64,000 nt of DNA, from NCBI GenBank assembly GCA_041389045.1, contig JAWKSQ010000001.1:139063-203062 (forward strand). Direction: 5' to 3'. This document shows, in pieces, positions 1,605-50,938 of the stretch (the stretch's first letter is position 1; every line of letters begins with the position of its first letter). The DNA is from Minisyncoccota bacterium. Its GTDB lineage: Bacteria; Patescibacteriota; Minisyncoccia; Phycocordibacterales; UBA918. The notes beneath the pieces are model-generated. The model made no database searches. It saw only the letters and a list, made by a program, of their open reading frames with translations, and was not told the origin of the DNA. A program made the translations under genes and the position numbers.

Positions 1605-2057
1605 ATGATTTGGTATACTTTTGAAATAATTATGTTCGAATGGATTAAATATTCATATCTCAAGTTTATCTTGATGACACTTACTTTCATCTTTATAGGA
1701 ACTCTATTTTTGAGTCTATTTCATATGTCTACTGACATGAGTATGACGAATCATACTCCTGGCTGTCCTATGCTGATGGAAACAGGAGCTATCTGTCAAA
1801 TGGATTACAGTGAGCATCTGTCAGCTTGGTCGGCACTTTCTCTCGCTATTCCTATTCTGTTACTAATGCTATTTTTACTACCTCTGGCAAAAGCATGTGC
1901 TATTGCTTGTTCTGTACTATTTAATCAAGTCTTCTTGGTATGGAAGCTCCTAGTATTTAATTTCTACCAGAAAAAATTTCCAACCTACATCGTTCGTAGT
2001 TTTCAAGAACTATTCTCAAGCGGAATTCTACACCCCAAGCTATACCACCTCGCATAA
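1605..2057 (+). CDS. hypothetical membrane protein with a Cys/Met motif, paralog of 13572..13988
   Basis: Shares SLFHMS..M.M..C..ME.G..IC.M...H..AW and a C-terminal QELFS.GILHPKL with ORF 13572-13988. Hydrophobic segments are present. The start may be the Met at 1632. Confidence 0.6.
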   Translation: MIWYTFEIIMFEWIKYSYLKFILMTLTFIFIGTLFLSLFHMSTDMSMTNHTPGCPMLMETGAICQMDYSEHLSAWSALSLAIPILLLMLFLLPLAKACAIACSVLFNQVFLVWKLLVFNFYQKKFPTYIVRSFQELFSSGILHPKLYHLA

Positions 2058-2143: not shown

Positions 2144-2893
2144 ATGGAAGAAACAACTCAAAAACAAACTAACCCGTACCTAATACCAGCTGCCATTCTC
2201 ATTGCTGGAGCCTTTGTAGCCGTCGCTCTGTACTTTGGTGGTTCTACACCTACACCAGTCGCAGTTGGGACAGGAAACAATCAGCCAGCAGTAGCGGGGC
2301 AGCCAGAACCAACCGGTTCAACCGATGCTGTTCGAACAGTTACTAGTGAAGACCACATTAAAGGAAATCCAGACGCACCGATTAAAATTGTTGAGTACTC
2401 AGATTTTGAGTGTCCGTTCTGTAAGCGATTTCACGACACTATGAATGAAGTGATGGATAAGTATGGAGATTCAGGCGAAGTGGCTTGGGTATTTAGACAA
2501 TTTCCTTTAGAGCAATTACATCCAGTGAAAGCTCAGGCGGTTGCTGTGGCTTCAGAATGTGCAGCAGAACAGGGTGGTAACGATGCTTTTTGGAAGTTTA
2601 CTGATGGATACTTCGACGTGACACTGACAAATAACCGAACTGATATCGAAACAGTCATTCCTCAACTAGCGAAAGAAGCTGGACTAGATCAGACAGCTTT
2701 TCAAACGTGTGTTGAAAGTGGAAAATACGATGACCATATCGCAGCCGACATTGCTAATGCAGTCGAGACAGGAGGTCGTGGTACCCCATGGAGCGTCATG
2801 ATTGGTCCAGATGGCAAAACCTATCCAATCAATGGTGCCCAGCCACTGGCGGCAATTGAACAGTTAATTTCAATTGCTAAAAACGAGCAATAA
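2144..2893 (+). CDS. DsbA-family thiol:disulfide oxidoreductase, membrane anchored
   Basis: N-terminal TM segment. Thioredoxin-fold CxxC motif DFECPFCKRFH. Thioredoxin-like C-terminal region (GTPWSVMIG). Confidence 0.85.
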   Translation: MEETTQKQTNPYLIPAAILIAGAFVAVALYFGGSTPTPVAVGTGNNQPAVAGQPEPTGSTDAVRTVTSEDHIKGNPDAPIKIVEYSDFECPFCKRFHDTMNEVMDKYGDSGEVAWVFRQFPLEQLHPVKAQAVAVASECAAEQGGNDAFWKFTDGYFDVTLTNNRTDIETVIPQLAKEAGLDQTAFQTCVESGKYDDHIAADIANAVETGGRGTPWSVMIGPDGKTYPINGAQPLAAIEQLISIAKNEQ

Positions 2894-2898
2894 AACTT

Positions 2899-3447
2899 AT
2901 GTACGTTAAGACCCTTAGAGTAGTTTTTGCAAAACCACTGTATGCCACACTATTTTTAGTAATTAGTTTCTTCGTGCTATCGGTAGCTATTATGTTGCCT
3001 CACGTAGGGCTAATAAGAACTTTATGGCAGTACGAATCGGTGTCTGTTGTTGAAATTTTGCTACTGACAGCAAATCTCTACGGGTCATTAGGAACAAACT
3101 TCACTATTCTGTCAGCTTCTTACACTGTGGTCATTGCTTTACTGTTTGGCATGCAGGTGACGCTTCTTGTGTACTATCTTAAAAGCATACGAAACAAAGC
3201 TACCAATCTGACCAGTGTAGGGGCCAGTGGAGTTGGTGGACTCATTAGTGGTTTTTTTGGTATCGGGTGTGCCGCTTGTGGGACATTTTTACTGTCTTCA
3301 ATCCTAGTGTTGTTCGGAGCTGGCGGATTGCTTGCGTGGCTACCGTTTGGTGGAGAAGAATTTGGTTTAATCGGAATAGGTTTATTGGTGTATGCCAATT
3401 ACCTCATTATAAAGAAAATAGATGCACCAAAAGTGTGCACATCGTAG
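2899..3447 (+). CDS. hypothetical 4-TM membrane protein with an intramembrane CxxC (GCAACG)
   Basis: Four hydrophobic segments. The third is Gly-rich and contains FGIGCAACGTF. The gene starts 6 nt after the dsbA-like gene. Confidence 0.5.
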   Translation: MYVKTLRVVFAKPLYATLFLVISFFVLSVAIMLPHVGLIRTLWQYESVSVVEILLLTANLYGSLGTNFTILSASYTVVIALLFGMQVTLLVYYLKSIRNKATNLTSVGASGVGGLISGFFGIGCAACGTFLLSSILVLFGAGGLLAWLPFGGEEFGLIGIGLLVYANYLIIKKIDAPKVCTS

Positions 3448-3474
3448 TTATTATTTATCCTAAATTATTAAAAT

Positions 3475-4008
3475 ATGAAACCATTAGTAATTATTATAGG
3501 TCTTGCAGTAATACTCTTAATTGGTGGATCGTGGTGGTCTAACACTTCTCAGCAGAAAGATTTCGAGCAAGAAATCATTGGTATCACCTCGACTATTGTT
3601 ACAGACCGTAGTCATGTACAGACTGAAGTTGATTACAAAGACACGCCCCCTGTTGGTGGAAATCATCATCCCGTGTGGTTGAGTTGTAACGGTGATATCT
3701 ATGATGAACCAGTTGTAGATGAAAATGCAGTCCATTCACTTGAGCATGGTGCGGTCTGGATTACGTATCAACCTAACTTATCAGTTGCAGATATAGAAAC
3801 GCTGGAGAAAAAAGTCACTGGCTATTCCTTTATTAGCCCCTATCCAGAACAAGAGTCTCTGATCATGATGACCGCTTGGGGTGTGCAACTTCCGCTTGAT
3901 ACTGTTGATGATCCGCGCATAGATCAATTTCTAGCTAAATTTCGACAAGGACCCCAAACACCCGAACCAGGAGCAACCTGCAACGCTATTCCGGGTGGAA
4001 TGCAATAA
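3475..4008 (+). CDS. DUF3105 domain protein
   Basis: N-terminal TM segment, PPVGGNHHPVW and VHSLEHGAVWITYQP match my recollection of the DUF3105 pattern. Confidence 0.75.
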   Translation: MKPLVIIIGLAVILLIGGSWWSNTSQQKDFEQEIIGITSTIVTDRSHVQTEVDYKDTPPVGGNHHPVWLSCNGDIYDEPVVDENAVHSLEHGAVWITYQPNLSVADIETLEKKVTGYSFISPYPEQESLIMMTAWGVQLPLDTVDDPRIDQFLAKFRQGPQTPEPGATCNAIPGGMQ

Positions 4009-4016
4009 GTCTGTAT

Positions 4017-4640
4017 ATGAAATACCAGATTCTAAAACAAAATTGGCTCGTCGTACTTCTTGGTGTAGTAGTTGGAATGGTTATTTTTCTCTGGGGACAA
4101 AATAACCAGTCTGGAGATACACCAAACGCTGCTGAAATTGGCTTTGCTCAAGATATGAGTGTTCACCATCAACAGGCAATAGAGATGTCATTCTTAGTTC
4201 GAGAAAAAACTGACAATCAAGAGATTCGAAGTTTTGCTTTTGACATCATCAACACACAAGCTAATCAGCGAGGGATGATGCTGGGCTGGCTTGATTTGTG
4301 GCAACAGCCCATGACCACCACCGGAAGACCAATGATGTGGATGCAAGCTGCAATGGATACTATGGATCATAGTCAGATGAGTAGCTCATTTACTTCTGGA
4401 GCCTATATGCCAGGTATGGCCACTAAAGCTGAAATGGAAAAGCTTGTAAACGTAGACGCCATTGAAGCAGAAAAATTATTTCTCGAACTGATGATTCGAC
4501 ATCATCAAGGCGGAGTGATGATGGCACAGGGTGTGATTGACCGTAGTGATAATGAAGTAGTCACACGATTGGCGGAAACGATGGTCAATGGCCAACAAGC
4601 CGAAATTGATTATATGAACGAATTGTTAACAAACTACTAA
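4017..4640 (+). CDS. DUF305 domain protein (ferritin-like four-helix, metal-stress associated)
   Basis: Two DUF305 repeats: FAQDMSVHHQQAIEMS and MIRHHQGGVMMAQ. N-terminal TM segment. Confidence 0.8.
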   Translation: MKYQILKQNWLVVLLGVVVGMVIFLWGQNNQSGDTPNAAEIGFAQDMSVHHQQAIEMSFLVREKTDNQEIRSFAFDIINTQANQRGMMLGWLDLWQQPMTTTGRPMMWMQAAMDTMDHSQMSSSFTSGAYMPGMATKAEMEKLVNVDAIEAEKLFLELMIRHHQGGVMMAQGVIDRSDNEVVTRLAETMVNGQQAEIDYMNELLTNY

Positions 4641-4649
4641 ATAAATAAT

Positions 4650-5309
4650 ATGGAAGAGACACAAAGAAATGAAGAACCTATTAAACGTAACGAGGAGGAA
4701 TTTCATGTAACCGCAACAAAAGTCCAGCAAAAACCACTCCTGATCTATGGCGCAGTTGCCGTAGTTATAGTTTTGGTAGTAGGAGCAATTTTGTACACAC
4801 AAGGTTTTGTCACTGCCGCTAAAGTAAATGGTCAGTCAATCAGTCGACTGAGTGTAGTCAGTGAGTTGGAAGAACAGGCTGGTGCGACAGTACTAGATTC
4901 TATGATTTCAGATATCCTGATCGAACAAGCTGCCACTGAGGCCGGGGTGACAGTGACTGACGCTGATGTGGCAACAGAGATTGTAGCTATTGAGTCACAA
5001 ATTACTACCCAAGGAGGAACGTTGGACGAGGTCTTAGTACAGCAAGGATTAGACCGGGAAAGTCTTACAAAACAAATTCGGATGCAAAAACTACTGGAAG
5101 CTCTTTTATCATCGGACATCGTGGTAACTGGTGAAGAAATTGATGCTTTTCTAGCAGAGAATGGCCCAGTTCCTGAAGGTCAGGAAGAAGCCGCTCGGGC
5201 ACAAGTAGCCGAACAGCTTAGAAGTCAAAAGTTTAGCACTGCTGCGCAAAGCTACGTAACTGGTTTACGTACTAAGGCAAACATTCAGTACTTAGTGAAC
5301 TACAAATAA
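4650..5309 (+). CDS. SurA N-terminal-domain-like membrane-anchored chaperone, no PPIase domain visible
   Basis: TM anchor followed by AAKVNGQSISRLSVVSELEEQAG and repeated helical segments, as in SurA_N/PpiD-like proteins. Confidence 0.5.
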   Translation: MEETQRNEEPIKRNEEEFHVTATKVQQKPLLIYGAVAVVIVLVVGAILYTQGFVTAAKVNGQSISRLSVVSELEEQAGATVLDSMISDILIEQAATEAGVTVTDADVATEIVAIESQITTQGGTLDEVLVQQGLDRESLTKQIRMQKLLEALLSSDIVVTGEEIDAFLAENGPVPEGQEEAARAQVAEQLRSQKFSTAAQSYVTGLRTKANIQYLVNYK

Positions 5310-5313
5310 TCGT

Positions 5314-6564
5314 ATGAGATATATTTTATTTAGTTTTATTGCTTTAGCCCTTGTTGGAGGAGGTTTTGTGGCTTGGCACAACACGGAAACATCGACTGTG
5401 GCATACGAACGAGAAACAACAGCCAGTGATTCAAGCACTGTAGTTACAAATAGTGTTCCTGAAGTAACCTCGAGTGCTGAGCCGTCTACTATGGAAGTGA
5501 GAGAAATTGAAATTCAGCCCGGTGATACATTCTCGACTATTATGGAAGAAATTGATGTACCATCCTCAGACCAAACTCTAATCCTGACCGCTGTACAAGA
5601 CGTGTACGACTTCACCAAACTCCAAGCTGGTAAATTGTTGCACGTGGTGTTTGCGCAAGACGCTCTTGCGTCGATTGATTATGATTTGTCTGATGATAAG
5701 AAAATAGTGGTAGAGAACGTGAATGGCGACTTTATCGCAAAAGAAACGGCTATTGAATATGACATCACCGATACAGCGCGTAGTGCTACTATCGAATCGT
5801 CGCTGTTTGTTGATGGTGCAGACGTTGGCTTGTCTGACAAAACACTCATTGAACTGGCTGAAATATTTCAGTGGGATATCGACTTTACCACTGACATTCA
5901 GGTCGGCGATTCATTTACTGTCTTGTATGAAGAACGTAAATCCAAGGATGGCGAAGAAGCTAGCTCAGGAAAAATACTCGCTGCTCAATTCAAAAATCAA
6001 GGCACAACATATGATGCTTATTACTATGAGACATCAGATGAAACGTCTGGCTATTATTCTGCCAGGGGCGAAAGTGTTGAGCGACAATTCTTAAGTTCAC
6101 CAATTAGTGTCGGGTACATCAGCTCTGGCTTTAGCTATAGTCGGGTGAATCCAGTTACTAAACAAGTTACACCACATCGAGCGCTTGATTATGCCGCTCC
6201 GCAGGGCACACCAATCGTCGCCATTGCTGACGGAGCAGTCTCGGTTGCCGGAAGTAAAGGTGGGCTTGGTATCACTGTTGAGATTGAACATGGTCAATAT
6301 CTCAGTCAGTATGCTCACCTTTCAAAGATAGCAACAGGCGTAAAACGAGGGGCCACAGTATCTCAAGGTGACATTATTGGCTATGTTGGTTCAACTGGTA
6401 TTTCAACTGGCCCGCACTTACAGTACGCTTTCTTTAAAGATGGTACACCGATTAATCCATTAACCGCTGAATTGCCTGTTGGTGAAGCGCTCGATGAATC
6501 AGTCATGAATGACTTTTTTGCGGTTCGCGACCGCCTTATCGAACAACTAGAACCCCTTAATTAA
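5314..6564 (+). CDS. M23 family peptidoglycan metalloendopeptidase
   Basis: HRALDYAAP, HGQYLSQYAHLS and GSTGISTGPHLQY (the HxxxD/HxH LytM signature). N-terminal TM segment. Confidence 0.85.
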   Translation: MRYILFSFIALALVGGGFVAWHNTETSTVAYERETTASDSSTVVTNSVPEVTSSAEPSTMEVREIEIQPGDTFSTIMEEIDVPSSDQTLILTAVQDVYDFTKLQAGKLLHVVFAQDALASIDYDLSDDKKIVVENVNGDFIAKETAIEYDITDTARSATIESSLFVDGADVGLSDKTLIELAEIFQWDIDFTTDIQVGDSFTVLYEERKSKDGEEASSGKILAAQFKNQGTTYDAYYYETSDETSGYYSARGESVERQFLSSPISVGYISSGFSYSRVNPVTKQVTPHRALDYAAPQGTPIVAIADGAVSVAGSKGGLGITVEIEHGQYLSQYAHLSKIATGVKRGATVSQGDIIGYVGSTGISTGPHLQYAFFKDGTPINPLTAELPVGEALDESVMNDFFAVRDRLIEQLEPLN

Positions 6565-6571
6565 CATTACT

Positions 6572-8518
6572 ATGACAGAGAGAAAACAAGAGTCAAAAAG
6601 TGCTTGTGACCATTGCCACAGCGACGCAAATCCTGAGACTGGAGTTCTGGCAATCCTGAGTGCAGGAGGTGCACTAAAATCACTTACACCTGTTTCAGGG
6701 ATGCTCTTAGCAGTGGGTTTTATTGGCTCGTTCTCACTACCTGAAGGCTGGAGTACACTTTTTTATCTACTATCTATCGTGGCAGGATCAATCTTTGTTC
6801 TACGGAGCGCCATCAATGGACTCATCAAACAAAGATTCTTAAATATTAGTTTCTTAGTAGTGATTGCTTCTATAGGAGCAATCTATATTGGTGAGTATGG
6901 CGAGGCGGCTGCAGTAGTTTTCCTCTTTTCATTAGCTGAATGGTTTGAGAGCTTTGGGGTTGAACGTTCACGTAAGGCAGTAGCAGCCCTCATTAAAAAA
7001 TCTCCAAAAGTCGCTCAGTTAAAAACTGGCGAGACTGTGCCTGTTGAAGAAGTTGAGATTGGAATGGTTGTAGTAGTAAAGCCTGGTGAGTTGATTCCAA
7101 TGGACGGTGTTGTTGTGGCTGGAGGTTCCTCAGTTGATGAGGCGGCGATTACTGGTGAGTCAACACCGTCTGATAAGGTCGTCAAAAGTAACGTGTTTGC
7201 TGGTACTCTCAATATACAAGGGTATCTTGAAATACAGGTAGAAAAAATGAGTAGAGATTCTACCTTTGCTAGAATCATTACGCTTATCGAAGAAGCTCAA
7301 GCCTCACGTGCCCCAACGCAAACATTTATTGATAATTTTGCTCGCTACTACACACCGCTAGTTGTTGTAGTGTCGCTACTAACGGTCGTCATTCCTGTGG
7401 TGCTACTTGGACAGCCATTTGATGAGTGGCTGTATCGAGCTATCACGCTCTTGGTGATAGCTTGCCCGTGTGCACTGGTAATTGCAACACCAGTTGCCAT
7501 CGCGTCAGCTATTGGCGGTGCGTCCCGTCACGGTATTTTGATTAAAGGTGGGGTGTATCTTGAAAAATTAGCCAAAGTGAAAGCGGTCGCTTTTGATAAA
7601 ACGCGGACTCTGACATACGGAAGACATACAGTTACAGAAGTCTTAGCGTTTGGTTCACACACCAAAGATGAAGTAATCGCTGACGCGGCTGGTTTGGAAG
7701 CTTTTTCCTCCCATCCGTTAGCAGAAGTAATTACTCAGTATGCAAAAGATCGAAGCATTACTCCACATAGCATGGAGTCGTTTGAAAACGTTGCTGGTAA
7801 AGGTGGAAAGGCACATTGTTTAGTTTGTAACGCAAAAAGTTATATTGGGAACACTAAGCTAATGAAAGAGCACGCGATAGAAGACAAATCGTTTTTAGCA
7901 GAAATTGAACGCTTGGAGAAGTTAGGCCAAACAGTAGTAATGGTGGCTGAAGAATCAGAGCTTATTGGGGCTATCGCAATAGCCGACACTGTACGTGAAG
8001 AATCCTCGTCTGTAGTTACGGAACTAAAGAAAGCTGGAGTAGAGAGTGCCATGCTTACCGGTGATAATACTCTCAATGCCACGTATGTGGCACAGTTAGT
8101 TGGCATAGATGATATTAGGTCTGAACTACTCCCTGAAGATAAAGTGAAAGCAGTGAAAGATTTACAAGCAAAGTATGGTTCAGTGGCGATGGTTGGCGAT
8201 GGGGTCAACGATGCACCCTCCCTAGTAACCTCAAATGTTGGCTTTGCCATCGGAGCAGGTGGTACCGATGCTGCGATTGAATCCTCAGACGTCACTCTTT
8301 TATCAGGTGATCTAACTACTATTCCACGTTCGATTCGATTAGCAAAAGCTACCATGAGAACGATTCGTTTCAATGTAGCTTTGGCTATAGGCGTAAAGAT
8401 TCTATTTTTGATTCTAGTACCGTTTGGCTTAACAAATCTTGTGTTTGCCATTGCAGCAGATTCAGGTATGGCGATTGTAGTTATTCTTAATAGCTTACGG
8501 CTATTTAATAAACAGTAA
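6572..8518 (+). CDS. P1B-type heavy-metal ATPase, CPC type (Zn/Cd/Pb-like)
   Basis: N-terminal CDHCHSD, TM6 ACPCALVIATP, GDGVNDAPSL, and TM8 AADSGMAIVV (DxG). The phosphorylation motif reads DKTRTLT instead of DKTGT. Confidence 0.85.
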   Translation: MTERKQESKSACDHCHSDANPETGVLAILSAGGALKSLTPVSGMLLAVGFIGSFSLPEGWSTLFYLLSIVAGSIFVLRSAINGLIKQRFLNISFLVVIASIGAIYIGEYGEAAAVVFLFSLAEWFESFGVERSRKAVAALIKKSPKVAQLKTGETVPVEEVEIGMVVVVKPGELIPMDGVVVAGGSSVDEAAITGESTPSDKVVKSNVFAGTLNIQGYLEIQVEKMSRDSTFARIITLIEEAQASRAPTQTFIDNFARYYTPLVVVVSLLTVVIPVVLLGQPFDEWLYRAITLLVIACPCALVIATPVAIASAIGGASRHGILIKGGVYLEKLAKVKAVAFDKTRTLTYGRHTVTEVLAFGSHTKDEVIADAAGLEAFSSHPLAEVITQYAKDRSITPHSMESFENVAGKGGKAHCLVCNAKSYIGNTKLMKEHAIEDKSFLAEIERLEKLGQTVVMVAEESELIGAIAIADTVREESSSVVTELKKAGVESAMLTGDNTLNATYVAQLVGIDDIRSELLPEDKVKAVKDLQAKYGSVAMVGDGVNDAPSLVTSNVGFAIGAGGTDAAIESSDVTLLSGDLTTIPRSIRLAKATMRTIRFNVALAIGVKILFLILVPFGLTNLVFAIAADSGMAIVVILNSLRLFNKQ

Positions 8519-8520
8519 TT

Positions 8521-8811
8521 ATGAAAAAGGAAACATTCAAGGAAATAATTGAAACAGACAATAGCATCCTCCTGCTCGATATTAGAGAGCCGGAAGAACT
8601 GCTAATTGAGGAAACAATTCCTGGTGCTAAGAACGTACCAATGGGGAAAGTTTTTACCGAAGCCATTAAAGGAAATTTACCAAAAGATGTACAGATAATT
8701 GTTTTCTGTCGTACAGGTGGTCGTGCTGGTGTAGTGGAAAGAGAGTTACGTGAAAGAGGGTATCTCATTGATGGATTGGAAGGCGGTCTAGAGGCTCTAA
8801 GGGAAACATAA
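8521..8811 (+). CDS. single-domain rhodanese-like sulfurtransferase
   Basis: Active-site loop FCRTGGRAG. About 96 aa. Confidence 0.8.
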   Translation: MKKETFKEIIETDNSILLLDIREPEELLIEETIPGAKNVPMGKVFTEAIKGNLPKDVQIIVFCRTGGRAGVVERELRERGYLIDGLEGGLEALRET

Positions 8812-11246: not shown

Positions 11247-11275
11247 TTGACTAAGAGACCCCCTGGGGGTATCAT
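11247..11275 (+). promoter_or_regulatory. sigma70-like promoter with a G/C-tract palindromic operator in the spacer
   Basis: TTGACT (11247-11252), 17-nt spacer, TATCAT (11270-11275). The palindrome ACCCCCTGGGGGT (11258-11270) fills the spacer, 6 nt upstream of the csoR-family gene start. Confidence 0.6.
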
Positions 11276-11281
11276 TGAAAT

Positions 11282-11554
11282 ATGAAACAGGACATTAAGA
11301 AAAAAGTCATCAAAAGACTTAAAATCATTGAAGGTCAGGTTCGTGGGTTACAAAAAATGGTTGAGAAAGAGAAGTATTGTGTTGATGTTATTACCCAGTC
11401 CTCTGCTGTTCGTCATTCTCTAGGATCAGTTGAAGATTTAATGATGGAAAATCATCTTTCAACTCACGTGATTGAACAGATGAGGAAGGGGCAACATAAA
11501 AAAGCTACTCAAGAAATTTTATCGGTATATAAATTAGCTAAGTTTAATAAATAG
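11282..11554 (+). CDS. CsoR/RcnR-family metal-sensing repressor
   Basis: RLKIIEGQVRGLQKMV, then Cys (YCVDV) and NHLSTH. Ligand fingerprint is x-C-H-H. Confidence 0.8.
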   Translation: MKQDIKKKVIKRLKIIEGQVRGLQKMVEKEKYCVDVITQSSAVRHSLGSVEDLMMENHLSTHVIEQMRKGQHKKATQEILSVYKLAKFNK

Positions 11555-11556
11555 CT

Positions 11557-13554
11557 ATGAAACACTCACATGATTGTCATAGTCACGGAAGTCCTGGAAT
11601 GGGTCACGGCTCAGCTGGTACTTTTTTAAAGCGGTTTTGGATCGTTACCTTTCTGCTCATTCCGTTAGTCTTTGCTAACGAAATGATAATGGAGGCTATC
11701 GGTTTGGACTCATTCATTCTGAGCAAGTGGATCGGTTTTGGTATAGCTACAATTATTTTTGGTTTCTCGCTTATCTTTTTCCAGCATGCGTGGCATGAAA
11801 TAAAAGCCAGGGCGTATGGCATGATGACGTTGGTTTCAATCGCGGTTGCCTCAGGATATCTCTTTTCGGTAGCTGCTACATTTATTCCGAGTCTCGAAGC
11901 AGATTTCTACTTGGAAATTTCAACTTTGATTTGGGTGCTTCTCTTTGGGCATTACCTTGAAGCAAAGTCTGGAGCAGCAGCTGGTGATGCCCTTGCTGAA
12001 GTTGCTAAGCTTTTACCAAAACAGGCACACAAACTGGTTGACGGACAAGAAGTTGACGTAAACATTGCAGAGTTGGTTAAAGGCGATATTGTTTTAGTGA
12101 AACCAGGTGAGAAGATTCCAGCTGATGGTTTGATACAAGAAGGTTCTGCCAATATAGACGAAGCCCTGATTAGCGGTGAATCAAAGCCAGTTGAAAAAAC
12201 CGTCGGTGCGGAAGTAGTCGCTGGTGCTATCTGTCTTGATGGCTCACTCACCATTACACTTACCCGAGTTGGTGAACACTCTACCATTGGACAAATTCAA
12301 ACCTTAATCGCCCAGGCCCAACAGACCAAACCAAACTCGCAACGAATTGCCGACAAAGCAGCTGCCGTACTTACATTTGTGGCTGGTATTACTGCGCTGT
12401 TAACTATTTTGGTTTGGACATTCTTGCTAGGCGAGACGTTTGTGTTTGCGGTTACTCTCGCTATTACGGTATTGGTAATTGCTTGTCCGCACGCACTGGG
12501 TTTGGCTATTCCAACTGTGACCACCATCACGACATCACTAGCAGTGAAAAATGGTTTCTTCATCAAGAACCTAGCGAAGATTGAGGTCATTCGGAAAGCT
12601 GACTACGTGGTTTTTGATAAGACTGGCACGCTTACAACTGGTCAGTTTGGGGTGACTGATATTGTTGCGACCAGCAGTCTTTCTAAGGAAGACATTTTAC
12701 ACATTGCCGCTTCGCTTGAACAACATTCTTCACATATTATCGGTGAGTCTATTGTGAAGCATGCTAAAGATTCTAAAGTCGCACTCTCTAATATTTCAGC
12801 CTTTAAGAATGTAGCTGGGAAAGGTATCACTGCCGAACTTGATGGAAAAAGGTATGTGGTTGGTAATAAGGCCCTCATGTCTGAGATGAACATCAATCTT
12901 GATGGTGCTGAAGCCGAATATAAAACTCTGTCTAAGAAAGGCAAAACGACCATCTTGATAGCTGACGGAACTAAGGTGCTTGGTCTAGTCGCTCTGTCTG
13001 ATGCCATCAAACCAGAGTCATTTGAAGCAGTTAACCGGTTGCATGTAATGGGTGTGAAAGTAGCGATGTTAACGGGAGACAATATCCAAGTAGCTAAAAG
13101 TGTAGCCGAAGAACTTGGTATTGATACCTACTTTGCCGAAGTGTTGCCAGAAGATAAATACGAACACATTAAGGAATTGCAAAATGATGGCTCAATTGTA
13201 TTGATGGTTGGCGACGGTGTAAATGATGCACCTGCACTGACCCAAGCAAATGCGGGAATTGCCATTGGTGCAGGAACTGATGTGGCAGTTGAAGCGGGTG
13301 ATGTGGTACTGACTCGCAACAATCCCGAAGACATTGTTCGACTGATTACATTAGCCAAGAAAGTGTATAGCAAAATGATCCAAAATCTTGTGTGGGCGCT
13401 GGGGTATAACGTTGTCGCTATTCCAGCTGCTGCTGGCGTGTTTGCGTACTGGGGCTTCTTCTTACGGCCTGAAATCGGGGCGTTTGTGATGAGTTTATCA
13501 ACGGTGATTGTAGTAGCCAATGCCATGCTCCTCAAACGAATAGATTTAGGTTAA
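11557..13554 (+). CDS. copB: P1B-3 type copper ATPase (CopB-like, CPH motif)
   Basis: His-rich N-terminus (HSHDCHSHGSPGMGHG), TM6 ACPHALGLAIP, DKTGTLT, GDGVNDAPAL, YN in TM7 and MSLST in TM8. Confidence 0.85.
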   Translation: MKHSHDCHSHGSPGMGHGSAGTFLKRFWIVTFLLIPLVFANEMIMEAIGLDSFILSKWIGFGIATIIFGFSLIFFQHAWHEIKARAYGMMTLVSIAVASGYLFSVAATFIPSLEADFYLEISTLIWVLLFGHYLEAKSGAAAGDALAEVAKLLPKQAHKLVDGQEVDVNIAELVKGDIVLVKPGEKIPADGLIQEGSANIDEALISGESKPVEKTVGAEVVAGAICLDGSLTITLTRVGEHSTIGQIQTLIAQAQQTKPNSQRIADKAAAVLTFVAGITALLTILVWTFLLGETFVFAVTLAITVLVIACPHALGLAIPTVTTITTSLAVKNGFFIKNLAKIEVIRKADYVVFDKTGTLTTGQFGVTDIVATSSLSKEDILHIAASLEQHSSHIIGESIVKHAKDSKVALSNISAFKNVAGKGITAELDGKRYVVGNKALMSEMNINLDGAEAEYKTLSKKGKTTILIADGTKVLGLVALSDAIKPESFEAVNRLHVMGVKVAMLTGDNIQVAKSVAEELGIDTYFAEVLPEDKYEHIKELQNDGSIVLMVGDGVNDAPALTQANAGIAIGAGTDVAVEAGDVVLTRNNPEDIVRLITLAKKVYSKMIQNLVWALGYNVVAIPAAAGVFAYWGFFLRPEIGAFVMSLSTVIVVANAMLLKRIDLG

Positions 13555-13571
13555 AATAACAGACATAACGT

Positions 13572-13988
13572 ATGTTTACATTTGTACAACAAACAGCTAA
13601 GAAAATAGTCTGTATTAGCGTACTCACAGTTTTTATCGGCGCCATGTTCGTTAGCTTGTTCCATATGTCTGTAGGCATGGATATGGCTGGTGGCATGTCA
13701 GATTGTCTGTTTATGGAACGAGGTGAAGTGATTTGCCCGATGAATATCGCTGACCATATTGGGGCGTGGAAAGATGCTTTTGTTTCAGTCGTTCCAACCA
13801 TCGTCACGCTTGTATTAGCTGCGGGTGCGATTGCTTTGGTTGTTTCAACAGCACCTTTTTTATTGGGTGCAAAAAGAAAACTGATACCCATCCAACTCAA
13901 TGTGTTTCGTACTCGGACGTACTCCTTTTCATATCGTCCACTACAGGAACTATTTTCTAATGGTATTCTTCACCCAAAACTTTTTTAG
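13572..13988 (+). CDS. hypothetical membrane protein with a Cys/Met motif, paralog of 1605..2057
   Basis: Same conserved blocks as ORF 1605-2057 (SLFHMS, C..ME.G..IC.M, H..AW, QELFSNGILHPKLF). Immediately downstream of copB. Confidence 0.6.
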   Translation: MFTFVQQTAKKIVCISVLTVFIGAMFVSLFHMSVGMDMAGGMSDCLFMERGEVICPMNIADHIGAWKDAFVSVVPTIVTLVLAAGAIALVVSTAPFLLGAKRKLIPIQLNVFRTRTYSFSYRPLQELFSNGILHPKLF

Positions 13989-14044
13989 CTACCGAATATT
14001 GCGATTTAAATCGCTCATTTAGTAGCTTAGAAAAGTAAATAAAC

Positions 14045-14707
14045 ATGCAAAAAACATACTTTCTTGGTGCAATTCTTTTTGCACCATCGATTATTCTCGC
14101 TCACGAGGAAGAACTACATATCACCACGGCGTGGTACCAAGAACCGATGACTGTTGTCGCCATACTTTTAGCTGCTCTGGCTATAAGTGTGCTCAGCTAT
14201 GGAGTCATCACCAAGAGAAAAAACTTCATCACGATACCAGTAATAGCGTTGGTAGCGGTTGCTGTCACAGGTTTAGTTTCCTTTGGTCAAAACAACCTCA
14301 CCTACGAGCCAGACTTAGCGGTCGCAAACTTTGGTGAAGGTCAGTCAGTCACCTTATACAAGAGTCCGAATTGCGGCTGTTGTAGTGGTCACACAGCGGC
14401 ACTCGAAGCAGCTGGCTTTGATGTCACGATTGAAGAAACAAATGAGCTTAACACTATTAAACAATCAAACAATATTCCTCTGGGTGGAGAGAGCTGTCAC
14501 ACGTCTATCATTGGTGATTACGTAGTAGAAGGTCATGTGCCACTAGAAGCCATTGAGAAACTACTGACTGAACAACCTGACATTGCTGGCATTGGATTAC
14601 CGGGAATGCCAATTGGTACCCCAGGTATGCCAGGCAAAAAAACAGCTCCGTATGAAGTTTATCAATTATCAGCTGATGGAGAGATGTCACCTTATCTAAC
14701 TATCTAA
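14045..14707 (+). CDS. DUF411 (CopG-like) metal-binding protein with an N-terminal membrane region
   Basis: YKSPNCGCCSGH, CHTSIIGDYVVEGHVP and GLPGMPIGTPGMPG are the DUF411 signature blocks. Confidence 0.8.
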   Translation: MQKTYFLGAILFAPSIILAHEEELHITTAWYQEPMTVVAILLAALAISVLSYGVITKRKNFITIPVIALVAVAVTGLVSFGQNNLTYEPDLAVANFGEGQSVTLYKSPNCGCCSGHTAALEAAGFDVTIEETNELNTIKQSNNIPLGGESCHTSIIGDYVVEGHVPLEAIEKLLTEQPDIAGIGLPGMPIGTPGMPGKKTAPYEVYQLSADGEMSPYLTI

Positions 14708-14709
14708 AT

Positions 14710-16383
14710 ATGAAATACATATTAAGCATAGGTGCGTTCTTGCTCCTTATTGGTGGGGTGTTTTGGTATACCAGTACTCCAAACATGATGAGGATGAACA
14801 TGGACGGCATGATGATGGGACAAAATATTCCTGAAGAAGACAATTTAGCAATCTTGCACGATGCGAATGTACCAGAAGTACAGCCAACTCAAGTGGTTGA
14901 ACTCAATGATGGCGATACATTTAATCTTACTGCTTCAATTGTGAAGCAAGAAGTCGGTAATCGAACTGTAAAGCGGTTGGCGTATAACGGTCAGATTCCT
15001 GGCCCAGTACTGAAGGTGCAAAAGGGTGCAAAAGTGACCGTCAACTTTATCAACAACATAGACATGCAGACATCACTGCACTCACACGGCTTACGCGGAG
15101 ATTGGCAGATGGACGGTGCAGTACCGATTACTCCAGCCATTGCAGTCGGAGAAAGTTTCTCGTATGAACTTGAGTTCCCTGATACGGGCGTATTTTGGTA
15201 CCACCCACACGTACGTGAAGACTACCAGCAAGAAGTGGGTCTCTACGGAAACATGATTGTAGAAGAAGATGGGTACTGGAATGAGGCTGATCAAGAAGAA
15301 TATCTAATAGTTGATGACATTCTTGAAGACGGAGACTTTACCGAAGGAGTAGTGACTAACACTCTCATGGGCCGCTTTGGTGACACATTGCTCATTAATG
15401 ACAAAGAAGACTATAACTTTACCGTTAAACAAGGAGAAATAACACGGGCGTATATCACTAACGTTGCAAACACTCGAACCTTCCAGTTAGAGTTTGAAGG
15501 TGCACTCATGAAGCTTGTCGGTGGAGATGTGGGGCGAATTGAAAAAGAAGAGATAATCGAGCATCAGACTATAGGAACAGCTGAACGATATGTAATTGAG
15601 CTGTATTACGATACGCCAGGAACGTACGCAATTGATCATCGTGGAGAAACTATTGGTACAGTCACCGTAGAAGCTTCTGGTACAAATAAGAAAGCAGAAT
15701 TCATGACCTTGCGTTCTAACGTTGCTGACTATACTGATATTCGATCTGATGTTGCATCGTTATTATCTAAAACACCTGACAAAAATCTTCGTCTCGATAT
15801 AGAAATGAAAGGCATGATGAGCGGAATGATGAATGATATGAACGGTGGTGGATCAGGTATGGGTATGATGGGCGGAAATGCTGATGACGATATGATGCGT
15901 GAGCACTGCAAGATGATGCCGGAAATGGCTGGCTGTGAACCGTATCTAGAAGGATCTGAAGAAGAGGAAGAAGAACACGGCGAGGATGGTATTGAATGGG
16001 AAGACGATATGGCCATGATGAACAATATGAGTTCTGACGAAAATATCGAATGGGTTATTGAAGACACTGACACAGGAGCAAAGAACGACGAGATTGATTG
16101 GTCATTCAAGACTGGAGACTTAGTGAAGGTGCGTGTCTACAATGACGAAAAAGGTATGCATCCTATGCAGCATCCTCTTCACTTCCACGGTCAACGGTTT
16201 GTTGTCTTGGCAGAAGACGGTGAACTCAATGAAAACATGCAGTGGAAAGACACGGTGTTGATTCCAAAGGGTCAGACTGTAGATATTCTTGTTGATATGA
16301 GTAACCCAGGCAACTGGATGGCTCACTGTCACATCGCTGAACACCTGCACTCAGGCATGATGTTCAACTTTGAGGTGAAGTAA
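14710..16383 (+). CDS. multicopper oxidase with a Met-rich and acidic insertion
   Basis: Copper-site motifs HSHGL, WYHPH, HPLHFHG and HCHIAEHLHSGMM. The insert is MKGMMSGMMNDM..MGMMGG..EEEEEEHGEDG. Confidence 0.85.
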   Translation: MKYILSIGAFLLLIGGVFWYTSTPNMMRMNMDGMMMGQNIPEEDNLAILHDANVPEVQPTQVVELNDGDTFNLTASIVKQEVGNRTVKRLAYNGQIPGPVLKVQKGAKVTVNFINNIDMQTSLHSHGLRGDWQMDGAVPITPAIAVGESFSYELEFPDTGVFWYHPHVREDYQQEVGLYGNMIVEEDGYWNEADQEEYLIVDDILEDGDFTEGVVTNTLMGRFGDTLLINDKEDYNFTVKQGEITRAYITNVANTRTFQLEFEGALMKLVGGDVGRIEKEEIIEHQTIGTAERYVIELYYDTPGTYAIDHRGETIGTVTVEASGTNKKAEFMTLRSNVADYTDIRSDVASLLSKTPDKNLRLDIEMKGMMSGMMNDMNGGGSGMGMMGGNADDDMMREHCKMMPEMAGCEPYLEGSEEEEEEHGEDGIEWEDDMAMMNNMSSDENIEWVIEDTDTGAKNDEIDWSFKTGDLVKVRVYNDEKGMHPMQHPLHFHGQRFVVLAEDGELNENMQWKDTVLIPKGQTVDILVDMSNPGNWMAHCHIAEHLHSGMMFNFEVK

Positions 16384-16493: not shown

Positions 16494-16569
16494 TGGTGCG
16501 CCCACTAGGGATCGAACCTAGGACCTTCTCCTTAAAAGGGAGCTGCTCTACCGGCTGAGCTATAGGCGC
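16494..16569 (-). tRNA. tRNA-Lys (anticodon TTT), CCA encoded
   Basis: Manual cloverleaf: acceptor GCGCCTA/TGGGCGC, D arm GCTCAGCCGGTAGAGC, anticodon loop CTTTTAA, T arm CTAGG-TTCGATC-CCTAG, then ACCA. Confidence 0.85.
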
Positions 16570-48667: not shown

Positions 48668-48786
48668 CCCGTCTAAGTTTCATTAGTTATTGATGTTCGG
48701 TTGCAAGATATTTTAAATCACTTTTATACATATCCGACAAGGAAAAGATTTTTTATTTGAGTGCTCATCGGTCGTTAGTTTGGTGC

Positions 48787-48815
48787 TTGCAGGTTATACC
48801 CCCTGGGGGTATAAT
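48787..48815 (+). promoter_or_regulatory. orphan promoter-like module with the same G/C-tract palindrome as the csoR-copB promoter
   Basis: TTGCAG (48787-48792), 17-nt spacer, TATAAT (48810-48815). 19-bp perfect palindrome TATACCCCCTGGGGGTATA at 48795-48813. Confidence 0.5.
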
Positions 48816-49209
48816 GATGTGGTTAAAGCATCGATCGTAGGATTTATTTCGATTAGGTCAACGGACTTTTTGTTAGCAAATTCGTCCCATAAAAATATCA
48901 CATCACATTTCTGTTCTTTGTCGTTGGTCCATTCCGGTGGGACTAGGGAACATATTTTTGTATGTTAAGACTGTCTCGTAAGAGTACCTTGATGTTTAAC
49001 TTAAACGTATCTTTTATAACTTTCTCAATTTCTTCAGTTAATTTCTTCGTGTCTGTCTTCTTTGTTTCAAAGATTATATTGCCAGAATTGATGTAGGTGA
49101 TGACATTGTTATAGCCCAGTGACTCAAAGCATACTTTGAGTTTAGTCATCTCTACCTTGTTATTCCCTCCAACATTAATTCCTCGAAGCAGGGCGACATA
49201 CTTTTTCAT
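48794..49209 (-). pseudogene. DUF1697 domain protein, frameshifted and truncated
   Basis: MKKYVALLRGINVGGNNKVEM.. (ORF 48943-49209) continues in another frame as ..SLVPPEWTNDKEQKCDVIFLWDEFANKK.. and stops at 48794-48796, short of the usual family length. Confidence 0.6.
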
Positions 49210-49543: not shown

Positions 49544-49795
49544 ATGATGTTTTGTAGGTGCACGGCGGACCAAAGTCCGCCGTGCACCACTACAATGCGC
49601 ATAGTTATACCTATTTTTGGACAAAAAGTCGAGAGCGAGGTTTGCTCGCTTTGCGGGCTAGTGTTAAACTCAATTATTATATGGACCAAGAAGGACTAAT
49701 GGTCACGCTATTTTTTACCTTTATGCTCTCGGCCGGGGTGGGTTTTTATTTAGCTCGGTTTATTTTTTAAGGTGGTAAGTTAAATACTGGTCTTG

Positions 49796-50938
49796 ATGTT
49801 AAAAATAACTTTTATAAAAAAACTTTACCTACTAGCTGTTTTGGTCGGTGCCTTTTTTGTCTCAACACAAGCTACTCTGGCTCAAGAAGTTCATCAGGAA
49901 TTTCAAGAAATAGTAAAAGCCAAAGTGATAGAGGTGGTGAGTGAAAGTGAGCGGGATATTATGGGAACCGGGGCCAAGACCACTGTTCAGGAGTTACGTA
50001 TTTTATTATTGGATGGCGAAAAGGCTGGGGAAGTGATTCGGTTTGAAAATGATCTCGTGATTTTAGAAAAAGATGACGAAATATTCGTTAATCGTTTGCA
50101 GTCTATCGATGGGACGGAGTTTTATTCGTTTAAGGATGTTGAGCGCCGTCCACCACTGGTTTTTTTGGTTCTTATTTTTGCCGGCTTAGTAGTTTGGTTA
50201 TCAGGCAAGCAGGGTCTGAGGGCATTGCTAAGTCTAAGTCTCAGTATCGGGGCCGTTATTTTTCTTTTAATACCCGCCTTACTTAAGGGTTATTCACCCG
50301 CGCTAGCTAGTTTGGTGATATCGGGACTAATTTTGTCTGTGACTTTGTTTCTTACTCATGGCTTTAAACCTCGAGTTGTCGTTACCTTTCTGGGGACTTT
50401 TAGTGCGGTGTTTATCACTTGTGCGATTGCTTATATTTGGGTGGAGTGGATGCGGTTTACGGGTTTTGGTGATGACGCTTCGGTTTATCTTAATTTTGCT
50501 ACGGGTGGAACGATTGATTTGGCGGGACTTCTACTTGGCGGAATCATCATCGGGTTACTGGGAGTTCTCGATGATGTTTCTATCACTCAAGCTTCGGTGG
50601 TGCAGGAGCTAAAGGGAGCTGACCCAGAGCTTGGTTTTAGAGAATTGTATGAAAAAGCTCTTAGAGTTGGGCGCGACCATGTTGGGTCGCTTGTGAACAC
50701 CTTGGCTTTAGCATACGTCGGGGCATCACTGCCAATGTTATTACTCTTCTCTTACTCGGCGTCGCCGATAATTGATTTAGTTAATCAGGAAATCATTGCC
50801 GCAGAAATCGTGCGAATTATAGTCGGTAGCATTGGACTAGTTTTGGCCGTGCCAATCACGACCGCTCTAGCGGCCTGGTATTTTAAAGATAAGAAAGTTG
50901 ACACTCATGAAGATTGTGGCCATAGTCACGTCCACTAA
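49796..50938 (+). CDS. YibE/F family membrane protein
   Basis: Signal/TM, an extracytoplasmic domain, then a multi-TM region with GVLDDVSITQASVV. His-rich C-terminus. Confidence 0.7.
   Translation: MLKITFIKKLYLLAVLVGAFFVSTQATLAQEVHQEFQEIVKAKVIEVVSESERDIMGTGAKTTVQELRILLLDGEKAGEVIRFENDLVILEKDDEIFVNRLQSIDGTEFYSFKDVERRPPLVFLVLIFAGLVVWLSGKQGLRALLSLSLSIGAVIFLLIPALLKGYSPALASLVISGLILSVTLFLTHGFKPRVVVTFLGTFSAVFITCAIAYIWVEWMRFTGFGDDASVYLNFATGGTIDLAGLLLGGIIIGLLGVLDDVSITQASVVQELKGADPELGFRELYEKALRVGRDHVGSLVNTLALAYVGASLPMLLLFSYSASPIIDLVNQEIIAAEIVRIIVGSIGLVLAVPITTALAAWYFKDKKVDTHEDCGHSHVH

Follow-up and report, generated by a model that had tools for sequence, protein, structure and literature searches.

In Rhodobacter capsulatus the small gene cutF is found upstream of the genes for a multicopper oxidase (cutO) and a CopG protein (cutG) (PMC7558416). 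CutF is exported co-translationally, binds copper via a periplasmic CxxxC motif, acts only in cis and is undetectable as a protein in vivo; it ends in a C-terminal stalling motif, and a stem-loop shields the ribosome-binding site (RBS) of the next gene (PMC9973294; bioRxiv 10.1101/2025.02.05.636593). CutF-like proteins (DUF2946) have fewer than 150 aa, a signal peptide, a Cys/His motif and PP in the last 15 residues, and the same-strand gene downstream is usually one of copper homeostasis (PMC9973294). Here we describe a family of small membrane proteins, labelled FAM, with two copies in a 64,000-nt stretch of DNA from a Minisyncoccota bacterium (assembly GCA_041389045.1, contig JAWKSQ010000001.1, positions 139,063 to 203,062 of the forward strand; 'the window'). 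The two open reading frames (ORFs) are called ORF1 and ORF2, coordinates are those of the window and + denotes its forward strand. The tail conservation, the hairpin at the stop codon, the spacer of fixed length and the strict position upstream in cis suggest, with a little better than an even chance in our view, that FAM is a cis-acting leader membrane peptide that senses external copper, an analogue of CutF, CopL and CruR in candidate-phyla-radiation bacteria.

ORF1 (1632–2057, +) encodes 141 aa and ORF2 (13572–13988, +) 138 aa. The two proteins are 33% identical with 53% positives over 144 columns (BLASTP, E=2e-23), a similarity far beyond chance, and they are paralogues, as the initial annotation of this DNA had proposed. 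ORF2 is identical to the NCBI hypothetical protein R3B53_00885 from a Candidatus Paceibacterota metagenome-assembled genome (MAG). The initial annotation had placed the first copy at 1605–2057; this ORF exists, but its probable start is ATG 1632 (MFEWIKY), because ORF2 and all homologues align from that Met and a hairpin at 1578–1613 overlaps ATG 1605, which is probably spurious. The features listed as common to both copies are indeed present: SLFHMS at the end of the first hydrophobic helix, a Met-rich stretch, H-x2-A-W and a C-terminal QELFSxGILHPKL. The motif C-x2-M-E-x-G-x2-I-C-x-M, also said to be common to both, is exact in ORF2 but reads C-x3-M-E-x-G-x-I-C-x-M in ORF1, and only C-x9-C-x-M...H..(A)W is kept across the whole family.

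AlphaFold2 (AF2) models of both proteins (predicted local distance difference test scores of 75 for ORF1 and 72 for ORF2) are two-helix hairpins with a low-confidence loop of about 25 residues and a poorly ordered tail that holds no folded domain. The helices span residues 2–33 and 59–115 in ORF1, with the loop at 34–58, and residues 2–34 and 59–99 in ORF2. Net charge over 261 members is +1.5 at the N-terminus, −3.5 in the loop and +5.0 in the tail, and from this distribution and the positive-inside rule the topology is predicted to be N-in/C-in with the Cys/Met/His loop outside. In the models the N-terminal helix looks like an uncleaved signal-anchor with the second helix after it. The predicted extracytoplasmic loop of ORF1 (1731–1829, +) has a Met-rich stretch and then C45-x9-C55-x-M57, H62 and W66; that of ORF2 (13674–13769, +) reads GMDMAGGMSD-C45-LFMERGEVI-C55-PM-NIAD-H62-IGA-W66. 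C45, C55 and H62 are invariant in alignment A4, W66 and M57 are at least 90% conserved, and both Cys residues are present in 370 of 372 sequences. The stretch of 14 or so residues ahead of the first Cys averages 3.2 Met and 1.0 His, and runs of His replace Met in some lineages. To judge from these residues, the loop is a plausible candidate Cu(I) site. The membrane core has no conserved Met, Cys or His, and helix 2 conserves only P75 and G85.

Conservation in the family peaks in the last 17 residues, RPLQELFSxGILHPKLF. Among 171 sequences at no more than 60% identity, information content is 3.08 bits per column in the tail, 2.47 in the Cys loop, about 1.5–1.7 in the helices and 0.79 in the linker between helix 2 and the tail. 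The motif is RPLQELFSNGILHPKLF in ORF2 (13935–13985, +; Pro135 codon at 13974–13976) and RSFQELFSSGILHPKLY in ORF1 (1995–2045, +), where HLA and the stop codon come after this candidate ribosome-pausing peptide. Pro135 is present in 315 of 335 members. The tail is encoded by varied synonymous codons (six for Leu, four for Pro, four for Gly and both Ser codon families), and selection therefore acts on the peptide.

The tail is also held at a fixed distance from the loop, even though the linker between them is the least conserved segment. The median distance from C55 to P135 is 80 residues (10–90% range 78–81), H62 and G131 are exactly 69 residues apart in 198 of 326 members, and exactly two residues follow K136 in 260 of 326. 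A narrow spacer distribution of this kind is a signature of membrane-insertion-dependent arrest peptides such as MifM (PMC10987492). Helix 2 ends at about residue 98, some 37 aa before Pro135; with Pro135 at the peptidyl-transferase centre, helix 2 would just be emerging and integrating. FAM has the features by which Fujiwara et al. (2024) look for such peptides, namely a small unannotated upstream ORF, an N-terminal transmembrane (TM) segment, a conserved C-terminus and a spacer of more than 30 aa, with the exception that the genes it precedes are copper genes and not sec or yidC. The two window copies and the other members, nearly all of 125–145 aa, also lie below the 150-aa filter used for CutF-like proteins (PMC9973294).

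A conserved, covarying stem-loop pairs the K-L-F-stop codons of FAM with the region from −19 to −8 of the next gene, the median span of the 3' arm relative to the start codon. The 75 nt that begin 9 nt before the stop codon have a mean folding z-score, relative to shuffled sequences, of −2.0, with 46% of loci below −2, compared with −0.44 and 7% for controls within the ORF (p=8e-10, n=89), and in 78 of 89 loci pairing begins between −9 and 0 of the stop codon. The arm at the stop codon pairs 2.1 kcal/mol better than 16-mers taken from within the ORF (p=8e-9). When pairing was scored as a register-free duplex and loci were swapped with others whose arm differs at four or more positions, the 5' arm of a locus had an advantage of 1.9 kcal/mol in pairing with the pre-start region of that locus over those of the others (Wilcoxon p=5e-8, n=75). 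The arms vary in matched pairs, for example CTTTTTTAG/CTTAGAAAAG, CTCTTTTAG/CTAAAAGA, GTTGTACTGA/CACAAC and GGTTTTTTAAC/GTTAAGAAAAATC. When the post-stop regions were aligned with MAFFT, RNAalifold predicted no pairs, since between classes the arms are shifted out of register. The spaces between FAM and the next gene are mostly 30–60 nt.

In ORF2 the stem-loop extends from 13979 to 14036 (+), with a free energy of −21.0 kcal/mol and a z-score of −6.0. Its 5' arm, ACTTTTTTAGCTAC (13979–13992, +), lies over the codons of K136, L137, F138 and the stop (AAA-CTT-TTT-TAG; stem partner TTAGAAAAGT), the inner stem is GCGAT/ATCGC, and the 3' arm consists of GTAGC (14022–14026, +) and TAGAAAAGT (14028–14036, +) and ends 9 nt upstream of the start of the DUF411 gene at 14045. 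A ribosome with the Pro135 codon in the P site would cover the next 12–15 nt or so, which is most of the 5' arm. In 32 of the 36 window ORFs of at least 200 aa there is no Shine–Dalgarno (SD)-like motif in the 20 nt upstream of the start and leaders are AT-rich, so this organism appears to initiate translation without SD pairing. It is probable that initiation requires the leader to be unstructured; a hairpin at this place would block it effectively.

The hairpin after ORF1 is of another type. It lies between ORF1 and dsbA (2052–2118, +), begins 3 nt before the stop codon, has the core stem AAGCTAAC/GTTAGCTT (2056–2109, +) and is followed by a U6 tract; with a free energy of −21.8 kcal/mol and a z-score of −5.4, it bears out the proposal of the initial annotation that this copy has its own terminator. 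The hairpin is kept in four related loci (L032, L033, L034 and L037). Terminator-like hairpins with a U-tract follow FAM in only 10 of 75 loci and are specific to the ORF1 subtype. Separately, the loci of the rhodanese/DUF1573 class (L021–L023, L028 and L102) carry a nested terminator-like element about 10–75 nt past the FAM stop: an outer stem joins the K-L-F-stop codons to the start codon region of the next gene (…TAATGAAAAGT) and encloses an inner GC-rich hairpin followed by a run of U.

The gene order around FAM was compared across 37 genome loci, several annotated contigs and 79 metagenome loci that a divergent alignment had retrieved; ORFs were called, and neighbours were classed by BLAST against the annotated proteins of the window and Pfam-checked neighbours. 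DUF411/CopG, DUF305/CopM, multicopper oxidase, DUF1573, DsbA and rhodanese were counted as copper-linked. The 91 distinct FAM sequences include 84 with a downstream gene; the next same-strand gene is copper-linked in 81 of these and a copper-linked gene lies within three genes in 83, so the association with metal genes expected in the initial annotation extends to the homologues. In 78 metagenomic occurrences the next gene encodes DUF411 (34), DUF305 (22), DUF1573 (8, followed by a multicopper oxidase or DUF305), a multicopper oxidase (5), a rhodanese (1) or an unknown protein (1), or the contig ends (7). DsbA follows FAM in loci of the ORF1 type. Upstream, the metagenomic loci have Grx-MauE or MauE (30, usually with csoR before it), ferric-reductase-like proteins or ApbE (10) or a P1B-ATPase (6). 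The commonest operon is csoR, grx/mauE, FAM, DUF411, DUF305, and at its smallest the unit is FAM with DUF305 after it. One distant member lies ahead of genes for an HMA-DsbD-cupredoxin fusion, a CopZ-like protein, CopA, two DsbA proteins and VKOR. Each module has a FAM of its own (the window and the 11.6-kb locus L101 hold two each), which is consistent with an element that acts only in cis. A two-component system was never seen beside FAM in the loci examined; CsoR was.

Taken together, these data lead us to propose the following mechanism. As FAM is translated, helix 1 would act as a signal-anchor and place the Met/His-rich C-x9-C-x-M-x4-H loop outside the membrane. Eighty residues past the second Cys the ribosome would decode RPLQELFSxGILHPK, at which point helix 2 would be just out of the tunnel and integrating. 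The tail would act as a pausing peptide within the tunnel, and the length of the pause would be set by the pulling force of helix-2 integration and of loop folding or C45–C55 disulfide formation; binding of copper to the loop would change this force. A ribosome with Pro135 near the P site would cover the K-L-F-stop codons that form the 5' arm of the stem-loop, and the pause would keep the initiation region of the next gene open and allow more translation of exported copper-defence proteins. For ORF2 the targets would be the DUF411/CopG-like protein and the multicopper oxidase, while for ORF1 control would act on read-through of the terminator into dsbA-DUF3105-DUF305. Copper would thus be sensed at two levels, in the cytoplasm via CsoR, which would act on transcription of the ORF2 operon, and outside the cell via FAM. 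Copper binding by the loop, ribosome pausing, opening of the initiation region and the direction of the response are steps that we infer by analogy with CutF and the monitoring substrates of protein export.

Several points weigh against a copper-sensing leader peptide. Pausing of the ribosome by the tail is a step that we infer, PP is present in the last 15 residues of none of 326 members, and RPLQELFSxGILHPKLF fits no RAPP-like or other arrest motif class of PMC10987492. The ends of the helices (SLFHMS, DHIxAW and P75) are more conserved than a generic signal-anchor needs. The loci are phylogenetically related and the n behind the p-values for the stem-loop overstates the number of independent events; moreover, about a quarter of loci have no significant structure after the stop codon. 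A hairpin from stop to start also fits ordinary translational coupling without arrest. ORF1 is the least worked-out copy. Its hairpin is an intrinsic terminator or attenuator and not an RBS shield; five residues follow K136 and, counted from the first base of the Pro135 codon, the hairpin base is at +19 nt, which puts the stem out of range of a ribosome that pauses at Pro135. Attenuation or occupancy of the stop codon is the probable mode of action of this subtype.

A plain extracytoplasmic Cu(I) chaperone was our first model, and it was demoted after the tail conservation, the fixed spacing and the stem-loop had been quantified. We now regard it as rather unlikely, though the most serious of the alternatives. 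Under this explanation FAM would be a stable membrane-anchored chaperone that relays Cu(I) from the ATPase to DUF305, DUF411 or the multicopper oxidase; a Met/His 'fishing line' would feed a Cys2-Met-His site, the tail would dock a partner and the hairpin would couple translation for stoichiometry. In its favour, ligands of the Cu(I) type abound in the external loop, which is well conserved, the ends of both helices are conserved, FAM directly follows a copB-type ATPase in at least 14 loci and copper-binding proteins lie downstream everywhere. Membrane-anchored copper chaperones such as CupA are known (PMC7558416), and in the minimal module FAM is paired with DUF305, a family whose member CopM binds Cu(I) with a KD of about 3e-16 (PMC4335983). 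A chaperone leaves unexplained, however, why the last 17 residues, which are cytoplasmic, are the most conserved and are kept at 80 residues across a non-conserved linker, why two residues separate K136 from the stop in 80% of members with the stop inside a covarying stem, and why each module has its own FAM copy. The AF2 models have no folded tail domain, and the class of the downstream gene varies, so no single conserved protein partner is encoded nearby. The initial annotation had suggested the handling of Cu(I) or another thiophilic metal. The link with copper genes and the plausible external Cu(I) site agree with this, but a regulatory role better fits the tail, the spacer and the cis position; a reading as a metal-handling component overlooks the strongest conservation, that of the C-terminal 17 residues, and the hairpin anchored at the stop codon after both copies. 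The mature FAM may have a function of its own, and the leader and chaperone readings are compatible with each other.

The remaining alternatives account for less. A thiol-disulfide relay, in which C-x9-C would pass electrons between Grx-MauE, MauE or a 182-aa CxxC protein and DsbA or DUF411, seems improbable to us. Both Cys residues are near-invariant, Grx-MauE or MauE lies upstream in 30 of the 78 metagenomic loci, DUF411 or DsbA lies downstream in about half of loci and CopG-like proteins hold a thioredoxin-like domain (PMC7558416). Yet in about a quarter of loci FAM is followed just by DUF305 or a multicopper oxidase, and a redox partner is missing from the neighbourhood. Only one Cys pair is present in FAM, which lacks the quinone-type or four-helix scaffold of DsbB or VKOR; there is no Pfam match to DsbB, VKOR or DsbD, and the tail and stem-loop would be left unexplained. 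A role as a small regulatory subunit for the P1B-type copper ATPase, like KdpF, sarcolipin or CcoS, in which the FAM hairpin would pack against the pump and the tail would contact the cytoplasmic domains, is quite improbable. ORF2 does start 17 nt after the stop of a CopB-type ATPase gene, an arrangement shared by 14 of 37 genome loci and 6 of 78 metagenome loci, but most loci have no adjacent ATPase, whereas the downstream link to exported copper proteins is near-universal; no small P-type ATPase subunit was matched in Pfam, and the stem-loop at the stop codon would again be left unexplained. An oligomeric TM conduit for copper or another thiophilic metal, like MerT, MerF or Ctr1, is the explanation to which we give hardly any weight. 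The protein is small, with two helices, an external Met-rich segment and a Cys pair, and stands at the head of metal-resistance clusters; the helix cores, however, have no conserved Met, Cys or His, there is no cytoplasmic Cys, Pfam gives no match to MerT, MerF, MerC or Ctr, and import makes little sense upstream of exported oxidases.

Neither ORF could be assigned to a named family, in agreement with the initial annotation, and no confident match to a characterized family was obtained. Pfam-A hmmscan gave no match for either ORF at E≤1, and among the NCBIfam models at the same threshold there were only three matches to ORF2 (E=0.05–0.17), far below the cut-offs. The Pfam models for MerT, MerF, MerC, Ctr, CopD, DsbB, VKOR, DsbD, HMA (CopZ), CcoS and KdpF did not match the window ORFs at E≤1. 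The DUF2946/CopL hidden Markov model (HMM) matched neither ORF (E≤1) nor any of 60 divergent members (E≤0.1), and a Pfam scan of those 60 gave only isolated single-sequence noise, such as one DsbB match at E=0.02. A profile search of PDB sequences gave only noise at E of about 0.7, Foldseek of the AF2 model against the PDB gave no matches, and tblastn found no relative in plasmid and phage records.

The family is large. Word-indexed searches brought up 244 relatives for ORF2 and 25 for ORF1, all of them lacking Pfam domains. When a profile built from 96 members was run against 1.84 billion representative proteins, it matched at least 1,564 clusters (50% identity) at E≤1e-3, 699 of them at E≤1e-10. 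Among the 150 best matches listed, nearly all are 125–145 aa and were matched over their full length. Apparent domain fusions among the long members were only mis-called starts. All 37 genuine loci from contigs of one genome per species belong to Patescibacteria (Paceibacteria, Kaiserbacteria, Nomurabacteria and others), a taxonomic limit that is a lower bound on the true range since the genome scan used the tail peptide pattern. One apparent exception in Chloroflexota (L038) was spurious, the match being inside a dehydrogenase ORF. We found no description of the family in Patescibacteria in the searchable literature.

The genes that surround both copies in the window are those named in the initial annotation, and the Pfam annotation of the neighbours agrees. 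All products downstream of FAM in the window have an N-terminal anchor or signal; across the loci compared, the genes ahead of FAM encode cytoplasm-facing or membrane proteins (CsoR, P1B-ATPase, Grx-MauE, ferric reductase and ApbE). ORF2 is preceded in the same operon by csoR (11282–11554, +) and by the gene for a CopB-type P1B-3 ATPase with CPH, YN, MSLST and a His-rich N-terminus (11557–13554, +). The best promoter-like site, TTGACT-N17-TATCAT (11247–11275, +), is just upstream of csoR and has a perfect CsoR-type palindrome, ACCCCCTGGGGGT (11258–11270, +), in its spacer; ORF2 therefore belongs to a copper operon under CsoR control. No CsoR box was found upstream of ORF1, where one was looked for. 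A second exact copy of ACCCCCTGGGGGT is found at 48798–48810 within TTGCAG-N17-TATAAT (48786–48816). There is no convincing + strand ORF after it, only a 62-aa ORF starting with TTG, and the next + strand gene (49793–50938) encodes a polytopic membrane protein that ends in HEDCGHSHVH. The site may serve a small RNA or peptide as its promoter, or else be an orphan promoter under CsoR control.

Downstream of ORF2, the candidate translationally regulated set identified with Pfam comprises the genes for DUF411 (CopG-like, CGCC) and a multicopper oxidase (14045–16383, +). The multicopper oxidase (14710–16383) has a Sec-type N-terminal anchor, no twin-arginine motif and then a Met-rich stretch (MMRMNMDGMMMG), and its sequence implies that it would have to receive copper outside the cell.

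The candidate regulated set downstream of ORF1 (2144–8518, +) encodes, by Pfam, DsbA, DUF3105, DUF305 (CopM-like), a SurA_N-like protein, an M23 peptidase and a CPC-type P-type ATPase, with an unassigned 182-aa membrane protein between DsbA and DUF3105, and the order is repeated in L032–L034 and L037. Genes for a rhodanese and a PAP2 protein come after the ATPase gene. The 182-aa protein (2899–3447) is polytopic, has GIGCAACG (CxxC in a hydrophobic segment) and gave no Pfam match at E≤10. In 14 related loci it occurs together with DsbA, whereas in two others the genes listed around DsbA do not include it; the protein is thus a candidate for a new redox partner of DsbA in the membrane of candidate-phyla-radiation bacteria. 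The P-type ATPase (6572–8518) has CDHCH near its N-terminus, FDKTRTLT where the canonical DKTGT is expected, and neither the YN nor the MxxSS signature of Cu(I) pumps.

Three kinds of gene upstream of FAM in other loci deserve mention. The commonest gene between csoR and FAM encodes a Grx-MauE fusion or MauE alone (L004, 9244–9990; L008, 9489–9998; about 30 metagenome loci). The MauE has an N-terminal His-rich MEHNH...GH segment and a C-x-C in its last helix, and it is an unstudied copper-regulated membrane thiol protein. In L003 (6643–9980) and in L005, L014, L075, L094, L099, L100, L121 and L123, FAM is preceded by a module like those of flavin-based extracellular electron transfer, with up to four parts: a membrane FAD/NAD oxidoreductase, a repeated secreted protein with no Pfam match, ApbE and a ferric-reductase-like membrane protein. 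This module could be a cupric reductase. In L006, a candidate-phyla-radiation MAG, a protein with a lysyl-oxidase domain (copper amine oxidase family; 7817–8593) is encoded just upstream of FAM.

The whole metal cluster of the window looks like an integrated island. It is bounded by a serine recombinase gene (99–1429), which is split into overlapping ORFs (99–1145 and 977–1429), possibly by a frameshift, and by a tRNA-Lys gene (16494–16569) right after the multicopper oxidase gene. Near-identical islands, with 94–99% amino acid identity, are present in other GTDB species (L001, L002 and L032), where ORF1 is only 65% identical, DsbA 87% and DUF3105 84%. The high identity across species and the lower values for these three proteins suggest recent horizontal transfer of an island with a mosaic or fast-evolving left end.

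If FAM is a copper-sensing leader peptide, the sensing of extracytoplasmic metal by a nascent membrane peptide, so far worked out mainly for CutF of R. capsulatus, would not be peculiar to the DUF2946 family. A convergent solution would also exist in candidate-phyla-radiation bacteria, which are among the most genome-reduced bacteria. Arrest-peptide research would gain an abundant and highly conserved new tail motif, and a large family of 'hypothetical proteins' would gain a function. The reading would also explain the gene order of the copper islands, with cytoplasm-facing genes before FAM and exported copper proteins after it. Were FAM instead a chaperone, uncultured bacteria would have in it a membrane-anchored Cu(I)-binding family that is new and specific to them.

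The comparators for a chaperone are CupA of Streptococcus pneumoniae, the CopL lipoprotein of the Staphylococcus aureus copB-mco-copL operon, CopM (DUF305) and CopG (DUF411). These are found in cop operons beside P1B-ATPases and multicopper oxidases and hold Cu(I) at the membrane in Cys/Met/His sites. They have folded domains (a cupredoxin, DUF1541, a four-helix bundle or a thioredoxin fold), whereas FAM has only a loop of about 25 residues and resembles none of them in sequence or fold.

For a leader peptide, one set of comparators is the monitoring substrates SecM, MifM, VemP and ApcA/ApdA/ApdP (PMC10987492), which share with FAM a small upstream ORF, an N-terminal membrane segment, a conserved C-terminus and a spacer of more than 30 aa. 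MifM and ApcA, which monitor membrane insertion, have a narrow distribution of spacer lengths, as has FAM. In these systems the paused ribosome opens a downstream stem-loop, as we propose that it would for FAM. They regulate sec and yidC and sense the activity of the export machinery, in contrast with FAM, which precedes copper-defence genes and for which the proposed signal would be external metal. GILHP of FAM is loosely reminiscent of the SecM motif, GIRAGP.

The closest likeness is to the CutF-like proteins (DUF2946), which include CopL of Xanthomonas and Stenotrophomonas and CruR of Bordetella. Both they and FAM have fewer than 150 aa and a conserved motif in the last 15 or so residues; the N-terminal export segment and the exposed Cys/His metal motif of the CutF-like proteins have probable counterparts in FAM, a predicted signal-anchor and a candidate metal motif predicted to face outside. 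Both are found directly upstream of copper genes on the same strand, mostly within 100 nt and in one copy per module, and in both a stem-loop in the mRNA between leader and next gene lies over the initiation region. The targets of CutF, a multicopper oxidase and CopG, are the same two families that follow ORF2. The differences are as follows. CutF has CxxxC, whereas FAM has C-x9-C-x-M...H with a Met/His-rich segment before it. CutF has a cleaved Sec signal and is a secreted peptide; FAM has two TM helices and its tail stays on the cytoplasmic side. The tail of FAM is without PP or PPP, so the EF-P logic of CutF is not applicable. FAM operates without an SD sequence, and its ORF1 subtype, unlike CutF, is followed by an intrinsic terminator. 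The FAM loci of known origin are all from Patescibacteria, in contrast with the CutF-like proteins, which are found mainly in Pseudomonadota and Bacteroidota. With neither a DUF2946/CopL HMM match nor a PP motif, FAM is set apart from the CutF-like proteins and is probably, on its sequence, a convergent analogue of CutF, unless profile-profile comparison shows remote homology. We would put at just short of even the chance that FAM is an independently evolved class of pausing leader, with a non-polyproline 'GILHPK' tail and a two-helix TM hairpin as sensor, that lets genome-reduced candidate-phyla-radiation bacteria without SD sequences read extracellular copper at the ribosome and, for exported copper-defence genes, gate translation initiation (ORF2 type, by an RBS-shielding stem-loop) or transcription termination (ORF1 type, by a terminator anchored on the stop codon).

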